Shown piece after piece: positions 39,121-43,668 of a stretch of 64,000 nucleotides of DNA. Positions within the stretch are counted from its first letter, which is position 1, and each line of letters begins with the position of its first letter. The position numbers and the translations under genes were made by a program. Source of the stretch: Eledone cirrhosa (taxonomy: Eukaryota); the NCBI GenBank assembly GCA_964016885.1, contig OZ024748.1:10912001-10976000 (forward strand), written 5' to 3'. The notes beneath the pieces were generated by a model, which ran no database searches, was not told the DNA's origin, and saw nothing but the letters and a program-made list of their open reading frames with translations.

Positions 39121-39308
39121 CTAGCAAGGATTACTCATGTAGCCTACTTTGAATGGTTTTACATCTGTTATTTCATTTCCTTTCTCATCGACACAGTAAC
39201 AAACTGATCCTCTACACTGGATATTTTCGTAGCCCCCAGTTTTGGTACACATGAAGATTCTCCCAACATTCATTGATCTCTGATACTTTTCCTTTGTGTG
39301 AGCACAAT
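39121..39308 (-). CDS. G4 last coding exon: complete thyroglobulin type-1 domain (N)CAHTKEKYQRSMNVGRIFMCTKTGGYENIQCRGSVCYCVDEKGNEITDVKPFKVGYMSNPC*
   Basis: Strong ctttttctttttctctttactttacag acceptor; 188 nt open to TAG at 39123-39121; six Cys with the G.Y...QC...C[YW]CVD..G.EI signature. Not in the ORF track. Confidence 0.9.
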
Positions 39309-39344
39309 CTGTAAAGTAAAGAGAAAAAGAAAAAGGGATGATAT

Positions 39345-40160
39345 CCTCATCATCATGACTGTCAATGTTAACGTTGTCATTGTCATCGTTGTCCTTATCG
39401 TTGTCCTTATCGTTGTCATCATCATCATCGTTATCATTGTCATTGTCATCATCATCATCATGACTGTCATAGTCATCATCGTTATCACCATCATCATCAT
39501 CATCATGACTGTCATAGTCATCATCGTTATCACCATCATCATCATGACTGTCATAGTCATCATCGTTATCACCATCATCATCATCATGACTGTCATAGTC
39601 ATCATCGTTATCACCATCATCATCATCATCATGACTGTCATAGTCATCATCGTTATCACCATCATCATCATGACTGTCATAGTCATCATCGTTATCACCA
39701 TCATCATCATGACTGTCATAGTCATCATCGTTATCACCATCATCATCATCATCATCATGACTGTCATAGTCATCATCGTTATCACCATCATCATCATCAT
39801 GACTGTCATAGTCATCATCGTTATCACCATCATCATCATCATCATGACTGTCATAGTCATCATCGTTATCACCATCATCATCATGACTGTCATAGTCATC
39901 ATCGTTATCACTATCATCATCATCATCATGACTGTCATAGTCATCATCGTTATCACCATCATCATCATCATGACTGTCATAGTCATCATCGTTATCACCA
40001 TCATCATCATCATCATGACTGTCATAGTCATCATCGTTATCACCATCATCATCATGACTGTCATAGTCATCATCGTTATCACCATCATCATCATGACTGT
40101 CATAGTCATCATCGTTATCACCATCATCATCATCGTTGTCATTGTCATATTCATCATCGC
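39345..40160. repeat. Compound (ATC)n-derived satellite, unit ATGACTGTCATAGTCATCATCGTTATCACC(ATC)3-6, in the last G4 intron
   Basis: About 18 higher-order units; explains the poly-Met and poly-Ile ORFs. Confidence 0.9.
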
Positions 40161-40389
40161 CCTTTTACATCCATCTTCCATACTTACACAGGTTAGATGA
40201 GTTGTCATGTCATGAGGCTAGTCAGACAGGTCAGGTGACTACATCTTGCTCATACAGATCTGTTTGGGGCTTGGTTTTCTATGGCTGGAAGCCCTTCCTA
40301 ATTACAACCCCATTACAGTGTGTATTGGGAGCTTTTCTCATAGCACCATCACTGCTACTTACGAATGGGGGGGGGGGGACCAGGACAAC

Positions 40390-40770
40390 CCCCTTACATG
40401 GTGGACTGGGTGCTTTTTGTGGTGGTACCAGCACATCCACTCTACAGAGTGGACTGGGTGCTTTTTGTGGTGGTACCAGCACATCAACTCTACAGAGTGG
40501 ACTGGGTGCTTTTTGTGGTGGTACCAGCACATCCACTCTACAGAGTGGACTGGGTGCTTTTTGTGGTGGTACCAGCACATCCACTCTACAGAGTGGACTG
40601 GGTGCTTTTTGTGGTGGTACCAGCACATCCACTCTACAGAGTGGACTGGGTGCTTTTTGTGGTGGTACCAGCACAACCACCTTACAGAGTGGACTGGGTG
40701 CTTTTTGTGGTGGTACCAACACAACCACCTTACAGAGTGGACTGGGTGCTTTTTGTTGTGGTACGAGCAC
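40390..40770. repeat. 48-nt minisatellite, about 8 copies
   Basis: tctacagagtggactgggtgctttttgtggtggtaccagcacatccac; no unique spacers. Confidence 0.92.
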
Positions 40771-41080
40771 ATTACTGGTACTTTATTCTATGTACTAGCA
40801 CTTTTGATGAATTGTAGTGCACCTGAGCACTACACATAATAATAATAATTATTATTATTATTATAAAGGTGGTGGATTGGCAGAAATAGCCCTTTACATT
40901 CTGAGTTCAAATCCTGCCGAAGTTAACTTTACCTTTCATCCTTACGGGGGTCGATAAAATAAAGTACCAGTAATACACTGGGGTAATTGCTGGCCTTGTG
41001 CCAAAAGTAAAAACAATTATTATTATTATTATTGTAAATGAAGGAGGAAAATAATGTTTTTGATTAAGAAGACGACTTAC

Positions 41081-41160
41081 TACAGGACTCGGGAGTAATT
41101 TCAGTCACTTTCAGATGTTGATAGGTTTCAAGCCTTTTTCCACCATAGCTGCAGTGGCAT
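41081..41160 (-). CDS. G4 fourth coding exon (phase 2 to 1): (L)CHCSYGGKRLETYQHLKVTEITPESC(N), second half of a degenerate thyroglobulin-1 repeat
   Basis: tttatttctttttag acceptor, GTAAGT donor at 41080-41075; open only in the frame that joins both neighbours; CxC..G..L...C pattern. Confidence 0.8.
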
Positions 41161-41686
41161 CTAAAAAGAAATAAATATAAAACAAGAAATACTGAGAGTG
41201 GCATCAGAAAAGACATCCAACTATAGAAAACATTCCAAACAAAAGGTTGAGTGGACCCTTTACTTTTGTCAGAGGTTTAACAATCTCCCAAGATCTGGTC
41301 TCATGACAAAACACACCCAGCACACACTGTAAAGTGGCTGATTTTAGAAAAGGCCTCCAGCTGTAGAAAACTTGCCAAACAAAGGGTTGAGAGGACCCTT
41401 TACTTTTGTCAGAGGTTTAACAATCTCCCTAGAACTGGTCTCATAACAAATCACCCTCAGTACACTCTGTAAAGTGGTTGATTTTAGGAAAGGCCTCCAG
41501 CTATCCACTACCACCATTAGTGTCCTTATAATGTGATTTGAAAGAGATCTAGCTGATATTTCTAGCCAAATTGAACAACTACATAGATGGTTAGCTCTCC
41601 CCTCCACACAAACACACGCACACACACATTGGCTCACACAAGTGTTTTGTTAACAAAGAAAATGGCGTATATTCAAAGTTACGTAC

Positions 41687-41735
41687 AAATGGGCTTTACA
41701 TGTGATATGGTCAAAAGACTTCAGGAAACTGAAAT
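41687..41735 (-). CDS. G4 third coding exon (phase 1 to 2): (D)FSFLKSFDHITCKAH(L)
   Basis: tttacttatttttag acceptor, GTACGT donor at 41686-41681; supplies the required phase change. Confidence 0.7.
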
Positions 41736-42061
41736 CTAAAAATAAGTAAACAATAAAAAAATTAGTATATTCATTTATTTATTTATTGGAAAAATATTCA
41801 CAAATGGATGGGATAAAGTTGTATAGAATTATGATGGTGGTGATGGTGTTGGTTGCAGTGTTGGTAGTGATGGTGGTTGTGGTGGTGGTGATGGTGGTGG
41901 TGGTGATGGTGGTGGTGGTGATGGTGGTGGTGGTAGTGATGATGGTGATGATGGTGATGGTAATGGTGGTAGTGATAGTGATGATGGTGGTATGTAAAAC
42001 AAGTCAGTCTTGATAGAGCAATCCTAAGGTATGTAGGTAGTTAGTTGAAAGACTAGGTGTG

Positions 42062-42500
42062 ATGTACAGAGACAGTACTCCAGATGTACAGACACAGTAC
42101 TCCAGATGTACAGTTATAGTACTCCAGATGTATAGTTATAGTACTCCAAATGTAGTTATAGTACCCCAGATGTACAGTCATAGTACTCCAGATGCACAGT
42201 TATATTACTCCAGATGTACAGATACAGTACTCCAGATGTACAGTTATAGTACTCCAGATGCACAGTTATATTACTCCAGATGTACAGACACGGTACTCCA
42301 GATGTACAGTTATAGTACTCCAGATGTACAGTTACAGTACTCCAGATGTACAGTTATAGTACTACACATGTACAGTTATAGTTCTACACATGTACAGTTA
42401 TAGTACTCCAGACGCACAGTTATAGTACTCCAGATGCACAGTTATATTACTCTAGATGTACAGACATGGTACTCCAGATGTATTTACAATGCTCTTGATG
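42062..42500. repeat. 22-nt minisatellite (tacagttatagtactccagatg), about 19 copies
   Basis: Visible tandem units. Confidence 0.9.
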
Positions 42501-42670
42501 TACAGACACAGCACTCTCTGAAATATTATGTTGAAATATACTGGATAAAAACATTACTTTGTTTGGGTTTATTTGTCATCCTTTACCCTTTATATATTTC
42601 TACTACATTGTATCGGCTTTCTGAAAAGCTTATCAATCATTTAAAAGAGTAAAAAGTTTCCAAAACCTAC

Positions 42671-42775
42671 CACGTGTACATTTCTTGCTATATGGATTAC
42701 ACAGAAGCCCTGGCTCACATTCTGCTGGTGACTGCATAATTGTGTGAAATATAGAGATACAAATGGCATGCTCCT
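42671..42775 (-). CDS. G4 second coding exon (phase 1 to 1): (K)EHAICISIFHTIMQSPAECEPGLLCNPYSKKCTR(D), second half of the IGFBP-like domain
   Basis: cttttattttag acceptor, GTAGGT donor; C...C.PGL.C......C pattern completes 12 Cys. Confidence 0.85.
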
Positions 42776-42800
42776 CTAAAATAAAAGTACACAAGCTTAA

Positions 42801-43021
42801 CCCTTCAGCATTTAAACCGGCCATATCCGGCCAGAATTATCTCACCTCTTTCTGTTCAAACCAGTTGTAACCAGTCTCTTATACTGATGTTAAGGTATTG
42901 TTCTCAAAATAAATAATATCAAAATCTCATAGATTCGATATCATGCGAGATAATTATGTAAAGTAAAGCCTTTACTGTGAAAATATAATAGTAAATATAG
43001 AGTAATGTAAATGCTAAAGGG
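42801..43021 (+). mobile_element. piggyBac-type MITE with TTAA target duplication; copies at 44271-44492 and 50855-51076 (reverse)
   Basis: TTAA|CCCTTCAGCATTTA...TAAATGCTAAAGGG|TTAA. Confidence 0.85.
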
Positions 43022-43502
43022 TTAAAACATATATATTGTGAATTAGTGTTATCATAATGTTGACAAATTTTGAGCAATGAATTTTATGTTGCTCAACATT
43101 AAGCCTGCTCAGTCTTGTTCTAGACTTTGTACTTTCAGGGATATTTACATCTCAAATTATATCAAATTTTTAGAAACACCCTGTAGAATGCATAGCTTGG
43201 CGATCAGAGAATTGCTCCAGTTAGAACTGCTACTTCTCTGAATTGAGAGATCACAGCTCCGGTACTAGGGGCATGTGGTTAAAATGTCTTAGAAAAGAAT
43301 CGCTGGACAGATTTTACAGGCAAAACCAACTGGCAGTACAAGTGTAAACTCCAGTATTTATCTGGAGTACAAATGTAAACTCCAGCATTTATCAGGAATA
43401 CAAGTATAAACTCCAGTGTTTATCTGGAATACAAGTGTAAACTCTAACATTTATCTGGTATACAAGTCAATATATGATGTAAATTTAATGTGTAATACTT
43501 AC

Positions 43503-43668
43503 TCAAAATTGGAATGCAAATACTACAGCAACCACATTTTACTGTTTTCAGACAATCATCTATCAGTGGACATTCAGTGCAACCCAAGTTAGAGTCACAG
43601 TTGAAGACAAACCCAGCAGCCAACACAAGCAGTGCATTAAGGACTGAAGTAAATACTATGTTCTTCAT
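43503..43668 (-). CDS. G4 first coding exon: signal peptide + N-half of IGFBP-like domain; full model is a 195-aa secreted IGFBP-like / thyroglobulin type-1 protein
   Basis: MKNIVFTSVLNALLVLAAG-FVFNCDSNLGCTECPLIDDCLKTVKCGCCSICIPIL with CGCCxxC; phase-1 GTAAGT donor at 43502-43497. Model 43668-43503, 42775-42671, 41735-41687, 41160-41081, 39308-39121 = 588 nt with no internal stop. Confidence 0.88.

Follow-up and report, generated by a model that had tools for sequence, protein, structure and literature searches.

The described proteins closest to G4, a predicted secreted protein with an AmFPI-1-like N-domain and one and a half thyroglobulin type-1 (TY) repeats, are the thyropins, the insect proteins AmFPI-1 and GmCP8, and the IGFBPs. 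G4 is encoded on the minus strand of a 64,000-nucleotide (nt) stretch of the Eledone cirrhosa genome (contig OZ024748.1, positions 10,912,001 to 10,976,000; hereafter the window, in which positions are counted from its first letter). Thyropins (MEROPS I31) include tick IrThy, the p41 fragment, the TY domains of saxiphilin, and equistatin. Their loops L1 to L3 are described as wedging into papain-family proteases, with the helix and L1 in the first subdomain, and IrThy as having two TY domains with a C-x-C junction, both of which inhibit cathepsins, the importance of the L1 Gly and Pro being a proposal of that source (PMC10889554). G4 shares with thyropins the six-Cys fold of its second repeat (TY2) and with IrThy the tandem arrangement and C-x-C junction, but it differs in its added N-domain, in having only 1.5 repeats, and in a remaining L1 without Pro. 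AmFPI-1 and GmCP8 (PF12190, PDB 3BT4) are single-domain insect haemolymph proteins of ~9 kDa, for which fungal protease or trypsin inhibition and opsonin action have been reported (PMC9273619, PMC5309989). They have 12 Cys, as does the G4 N-domain, and are its best sequence-profile and fold match, whereas G4 is a multi-domain protein with TY repeats. Vertebrate IGFBP1-6 and the invertebrate SIBD and IGFBP7-like proteins share with G4 the CGCCxxC motif, 12 Cys, and a related fold, and IGFBP1-6 also a C-terminal TY; unlike them, G4 has another Cys spacing, a short last loop, and no long linker, and it falls below the Pfam IGFBP cut-off. Where IGFBP1-6 have an unstructured linker and a single TY, G4 has a four-Cys half repeat followed by TY2, derived from a two-TY ancestor. 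Invertebrate IGFBPs have been described as IB-only or IB-Kazal-Ig (PMC7866140).

The minus strand carries every motif that the original prediction had quoted for G4, at the positions it gave. G4 comprises five coding exons (43668-43503, 42775-42671, 41735-41687, 41160-41081, and 39308-39121), separated by GT..AG introns of phases 1, 1, 2, and 1. The joined exons give 588 nt that encode 195 amino acids and a stop codon, with 22 Cys divided 12 + 4 + 6. Exon 1, with 39 nt of 5′ untranslated region (UTR), spans 43503..43707. It starts translation at the ATG at 43668, encodes a signal peptide predicted from hydropathy only (residues ~4-19 are hydrophobic) and the first eight Cys of the N-domain, including CGCCxxC, and ends in a phase-1 donor; its coding length is 166 nt in G4 and in three paralogues. 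Exon 2 (42671..42775) supplies the last four Cys of the N-domain, with spacing 9,13,5,6. Exon 3, of 49 nt (41687..41735), is a remnant of the first half of the first repeat (TY1), and exon 4, of 80 nt in all four gene models (41081..41160), encodes its second half (Cys4-Cys6). The complete TY2 and the stop codon lie in exon 5 (39121..39308). The intron 37920-39120 opens immediately behind the stop codon, so the 3′ UTR forms a separate exon (37730..37919, with GT and AG splice sites), which the original prediction had overlooked. A hexamer scan placed candidate polyadenylation hexamers after it, at 37708-37631.

A search of public runs listed no RNA run among those with the sequence. Four public runs (X1-X4) were aligned to the locus. 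The contigs of X1-X3 were genomic. Contig 25 of run X4 (1494 nt, depth 21.6) aligned as the consecutive pieces 37730-37919, 39121-39308, 42671-42775, and 43503-43707, that is, as the 3′ UTR exon and exons 5, 2, and 1, and the 129 nt between the second and third pieces equal exons 4 and 3 together (80 + 49). This splice support comes from one contig of one study, in a run that is not recorded as RNA; for exons 3 and 4 it consists of the length only. Searches of the animal's own genome revealed no second identical copy of exons 1 and 5, which makes the contig likelier to be a transcript than a retrocopy. These results confirm G4 as a genuine spliced gene, including the connection of exon 1 to exon 5. 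The original prediction had proposed a spliced product of 195 amino acids with a half and a full TY repeat and had made it depend on the joining of exon 39121-39308 to the 43.5-kb exon; the two are joined in the contig, and both the product and the layout were borne out. We also observed a tandem array of a His/Ile-coding-type trinucleotide at ~39340-40160 (intron 4), which creates a spurious 347-codon open frame reaching exon 5. Intronic fragments at L008:6268-6481 and L009:1175-1345 resemble LINE endonuclease and reverse-transcriptase pieces.

Profile, hidden Markov model (HMM), fold, and loop comparisons together indicate that the N-domain resembles IGFBP-N in its fold, while its family is that of AmFPI-1. 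Its 12 Cys with CGCCxxC align one-to-one with those of true IGFBP domains, and similarity beyond the Cys pattern was such that, in 7 of 12 pairs, no more than 5% of Cys-kept shuffles scored as high. The sequence link to AmFPI-1 has two steps, from G4 to a family HMM and from a family profile to 3BT4. On an HMM of 43 relatives, which omits two octopus-like rows, the G4 N-domain scored 32.0 bits; none of 200 Cys-kept shuffles exceeded 24.3, and the three true IGFBP domains of this genome scored 8-11, as shuffles do. A 39-sequence family profile matched 3BT4 over residues 2-82 of 86 (E=2.6e-7), and no IGFBP-N-only chain was among the matches listed, which is not an exclusion; the shallow profiles A1, A2, and A5 retrieved neither 3BT4 nor an IGFBP-N-only chain at E<=10. 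Among 42 full-length relatives, Pfam amfpi-1 was matched in 13, two of them above the cut-off (25 bits), and Pfam IGFBP in three, none above the cut-off (28 bits; best 19.9). No match to amfpi-1 (PF12190) was obtained for the octopod family members, nor any Pfam match, including IGFBP (PF00219), for three G4 exons scanned separately, the two N-domain exons among them. A search of the genome with PF12190 gave no match and left the controls unmatched as well, and is therefore uninformative. Genuine IGFBP-domain exons were observed elsewhere in the genome (L016 on contig C4, L017 on C6, and L018 on C5), two of which exceed the PF00219 cut-off of 28, at 44.7 and 33.7 bits.

The fold comparison was performed with a model of the N-domain of the Argonauta homologue (predicted local distance difference test, pLDDT, 71.8). 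Foldseek (probability 1.00, TMq 0.56, E 0.017) and VIA-align (Z 5.8, root-mean-square deviation 4.9, 73 aligned) both ranked 3BT4 first, each as a moderate match, with SIBD-1, IGFBP chains, and HtrA1-N behind it. An ESM Atlas search placed amfpi-1 clusters at the top (0.80-0.81), a lead only, and aligning nine N-domains with the three true IGFBP domains in hhalign gave a probability of 36%. For the full-length O. vulgaris homologue, AlphaFold gave a poor model (pLDDT 55), whose Foldseek matches were confined to the TY part. The IGF-contact residues of IGFBP5 probably lie in the Cys11-Cys12 loop. This loop has six residues and is polar in G4, compared with 11 and 28 residues in the true IGFBP domains of this genome. 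The IGF contacts reported for IGFBP5 include the hydrophobic Leu70 and Leu74, plus Lys68/Arg69 (PMC5618481). The label "IGFBP N-domain" given in the original prediction therefore holds at the level of the fold superfamily and fails at that of the family, where the domain belongs to the AmFPI-1 branch. Of its two functional suggestions, a protease inhibitor related to fungal-protease-inhibitor-like proteins gains support from the 3BT4 matches, and a binder of insulin-like peptides fares poorly, given the short loop and the scores below the Pfam IGFBP cut-off.

In the TY part, exon 5 matched Pfam PF00086 at 38.5 bits (cut-off 20.6), and TY2 is a six-Cys thyroglobulin type-1A domain, whereas TY1 has four Cys only. 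The closest solved relatives of TY2 are thyroglobulin, saxiphilin, and p41; a protein search with exon 5 alone against longer proteins gave five candidates, none of them significant. The half repeat is tied to TY2 by a C-N-C junction (C133-N-C135), with no long linker. Of TY1, exon 3 retains Cys3 but has lost the helix and L1 loop along with Cys1 and Cys2. Across the family, the Pro two residues before Cys2 that marks the canonical L1 motif is present in 16 of 18 intact TY1 repeats and in 1 of 21 TY2 repeats. G4 has L1 deleted in TY1 and, in TY2, an L1 with Gly and without Pro, like 20 of the 21 family TY2 repeats; its TY2 retains the family-typical G-[KR]-x-F-x-C loop.

The origin of the half repeat is apparent from the paralogues. 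The 3.0-Gb genome has at least 12 TY matches, of which at least 8 lie on C8, the contig of the window, and represent at least five genes of the family. Three paralogues were modelled, at 30.55-30.56 Mb (52% identical to G4) and at 9.54 Mb and 9.50 Mb (27-28%), and all have the intron phases and exon sizes of G4, except for exon 3. In the 9.5-Mb pair, this exon measures 133 nt and supplies both Cys1 and Cys2 of a complete first TY, together with its helix and L1 loop; it measures 91 nt in the 30.56-Mb paralogue and 49 nt in G4. Cys1 and Cys2 were lost jointly in G4 and its closest paralogue at 30.56 Mb, and the acceptor context of exon 3 in G4 is homologous to that of the 91-nt exon. The shrunken exon 3 of G4 thus corresponds to loss of the first disulfide of TY1 and its Gly..Pro loop. 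Between G4 and the 30.56-Mb paralogue, dN/dS was 0.37 and all 22 Cys are retained, showing that G4 is under purifying selection relative to this paralogue. The tree unites G4 with its closest paralogue in a clade that sits on a very long branch, and two paralogues of this genome group with Octopus vulgaris and Argonauta proteins, consistent with an octopod source. These results show that G4 descends from a family of N-domain + TY + TY proteins and has since lost the first subdomain of TY1.

Several further family sequences were observed. The canonical pair at 9.49-9.54 Mb of C8 (L010/L011 and L014/L015) encodes proteins of 221 amino acids on opposite strands, with 26 amino-acid-changing and 4 silent codon differences; positive selection between them was considered and rejected (dN/dS 1.98, but p=0.14, not significant). 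A fifth family gene at 9.59-9.61 Mb (L022:4808-4921, L012:1220-1305, and L013:61-264) has two TY repeats, and the ~15 kb upstream of the first of its TY exons revealed no N-domain exon. The minus strand of the window also carries three paralogous first coding exons, at 8452-8617, ~19800-19961, and ~29030-29196, which share the 5′ UTR acceptor motif and the type of signal peptide. The exon at 8617 retains eight Cys. Those at 19961 and 29196, recent duplicates of each other (91-95% DNA identity), have lost the cysteines of CGCCxxC. Homologues of exon 2 or of the TY exons were found for none of the three, either in the window or in the 30 kb to its left.

The original prediction implied that this architecture is rare, which proved wrong. 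A phmmer search with the O. vulgaris protein gave 956 matches at E<=0.001, and 45 of the best 150 had a 12-Cys N-domain preceding TY repeats, with a spacing of ..1,0,2,9,10-15,5,3-13. Names were obtained for 9 of the 20 clusters looked up (Gigantopelta, Haliotis, Patella, Tubulanus, Lingula, Oppia, Brassicogethes, Liphistius, and the crinoid Antedon), so that the family spans molluscs, a brachiopod, a nemertean, arthropods, and a crinoid, that is, protostomes and one crinoid. Annotated full-length homologues with N-domain + TY + TY occur in O. vulgaris (CAI9734988.1), O. sinensis (XP_029646879.1, "nidogen-2-like"), and Argonauta (GAB1605670.1), and further members of the same unnamed family, filed as "saxiphilin-like", in Tubulanus (XP_074657853.1) and Antedon (XP_071958121.1). 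In a mantis shrimp protein, a variant N-domain is combined with four TYs. Like G4, the family has a signal peptide, a 12-Cys N-domain with spacing ..1,0,2,9,~13,5,~6, and tandem TY repeats with a C-x-C junction. Unlike it, G4 has shorter N-terminal loops and a TY1 without the first subdomain, and its identity to any of the 194 database proteins compared does not exceed ~32%. The architecture is common in databases, and G4 is a trimmed and fast-evolving form of it. Only one of the 45 N-domain-bearing matches shares the loss of TY1 Cys1 and Cys2, a Liphistius protein that its source names U86-liphistoxin-Lth1a (UniRef A0A4Q8K538). The tree places this protein apart from G4, so its loss is likely independent; a functional paper on it was not found. 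Relatives are filed under misleading names (nidogen-2-like, saxiphilin-like, and thyroglobulin-like). In the open-access literature, we found no paper describing the AmFPI-like + TY architecture, subscription journals not being covered; PMC12785369 and PMC9972223 list amfpi and TY proteins separately.

We tentatively take G4 to be a secreted protein, either a protease inhibitor or a defence protein, in which one thyropin site remains. After secretion, the three loops of the intact TY2 would wedge into the cleft of a papain-family cysteine protease in the manner of p41 and tick IrThy, and the N-domain would act as a serine protease inhibitor or as a binder of microbial surfaces, like insect AmFPI-1 and GmCP8. 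The half repeat, linked to TY2 via C-N-C, would be a mere disulfide-locked spacer, so that G4 would have one thyropin site where the canonical paralogues would have two. In favour of this proposal are the PF00086 match of TY2, the sequence and fold matches to AmFPI-1, the IrThy-like tandem with its C-x-C junction, the dN/dS of 0.37 with all Cys retained, and a likely family member in the O. vulgaris posterior salivary gland proteome. Several points weigh against it. The family assignment of the N-domain is weakened by the small number of relatives, 2 of 42, that exceed the amfpi-1 cut-off, and by fold evidence that comes from a homologue ~30% identical to G4, with a Z of 5.8 that lies below the tool's reliable level. 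Since the L1 motif occurs mostly in TY1, whose L1 G4 has deleted, the likely main inhibitory site is gone. Inhibition by TY proteins has been confirmed for few only, according to PMC7863939, and the Manduca AmFPI-1 orthologue is reported to have inhibited none of seven proteases (PMC9273619, PMC5309989). Finally, the very long branch of G4 and its paralogue makes a changed function possible.

The most serious competitor of the inhibitor reading, less probable in our view, is that G4 is an ex-inhibitor that now serves as a neofunctionalised secreted binder or scaffold (an opsonin, or a component of mucus, egg, or matrix) with the N-domain and TY2 as interaction surfaces. The loss of the TY1 L1 loop, the lack of Pro in L1 of TY2, the long branch, and the ~30% identity to all database proteins compared are consistent with it, and so are the reports that TY domains are frequently non-inhibitory (PMC7863939) and that GmCP8 binds microbial ligands. 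However, TY2 retains its G-[KR]-x-F-x-C loop and six Cys, and the atypical C-domain of IrThy is reported to inhibit nonetheless (PMC10889554).

A role in the salivary or venom gland, in which G4 would act on prey by shielding venom proteins against proteases or through modulation of ion channels, is unlikely. The posterior salivary gland proteome of O. vulgaris contains a 227-amino-acid "saxiphilin-like" protein with a signal peptide, detected by two peptides (PMC7693380), which, from its label and length, is likely a canonical family member; the half-TY1 layout recurs in the Liphistius protein named a liphistoxin, and a two-TY spider venom protein is described as sodium-channel-targeting (PMC10889554). 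However, the salivary protein has the canonical length and not that of G4, source names are no functional tests, and two-TY proteins are reported to be highly expressed in the venom-less spider gut too (PMC12785369).

Still less credible is the view that G4 clamps octopus insulin-like peptides between an IGFBP-type N-domain and TY, as vertebrate IGFBP1-6 do with their ligands. It draws on the one-to-one Cys alignment, the weak similarity beyond it in 7 of 12 pairs, the position of SIBD-1, IGFBP chains, and HtrA1-N next after 3BT4 in the fold searches, and an O. bimaculoides family fragment automatically named "IGFBP N-terminal domain-containing protein". That fragment scores 18.2 bits against a cut-off of 28, which none of the 42 relatives exceeds; the loop that likely holds the IGF patch is six residues long rather than 11 or 28, the long linker is absent, the genome has separate genuine IGFBP-domain genes, and even amphioxus IGFBP is reported to bind no IGF (PMC5900387, PMC5241279). 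That G4 is a decaying duplicate, or its short exon 3 mis-annotated, we consider highly improbable: the nearby first exons at 19961 and 29196 have lost their CGCCxxC cysteines and exon 3 is not a separate listed piece of the X4 contig, but the open reading frame is intact, the spliced record has the exact length of exons 3 and 4, the Cys loss is paired and common to the 52%-identical paralogue with a dN/dS of 0.37, and no other phase-compatible exon 3 candidate was found within the intron.

Both domains of G4 were already known, and to a specialist the gene offers a tidy annotation and a modest lead on evolution rather than a surprise; the family to which it belongs is widespread among invertebrates and little described. 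With an exon 3 of 133, 91, or 49 nt, the paralogues and G4 amount to a natural series of deletions in the first thyropin site, and a direct test of which repeat inhibits is therefore possible. The family of AmFPI-like N-domain + TY proteins could conceivably be the bilaterian sister group of chordate IGFBP1-6, although we regard this as improbable. If it were true, IGF-binding proteins would derive from a two-headed protease inhibitor, and G4 would be a parallel example of a TY repeat eroding into an IGFBP-like linker.

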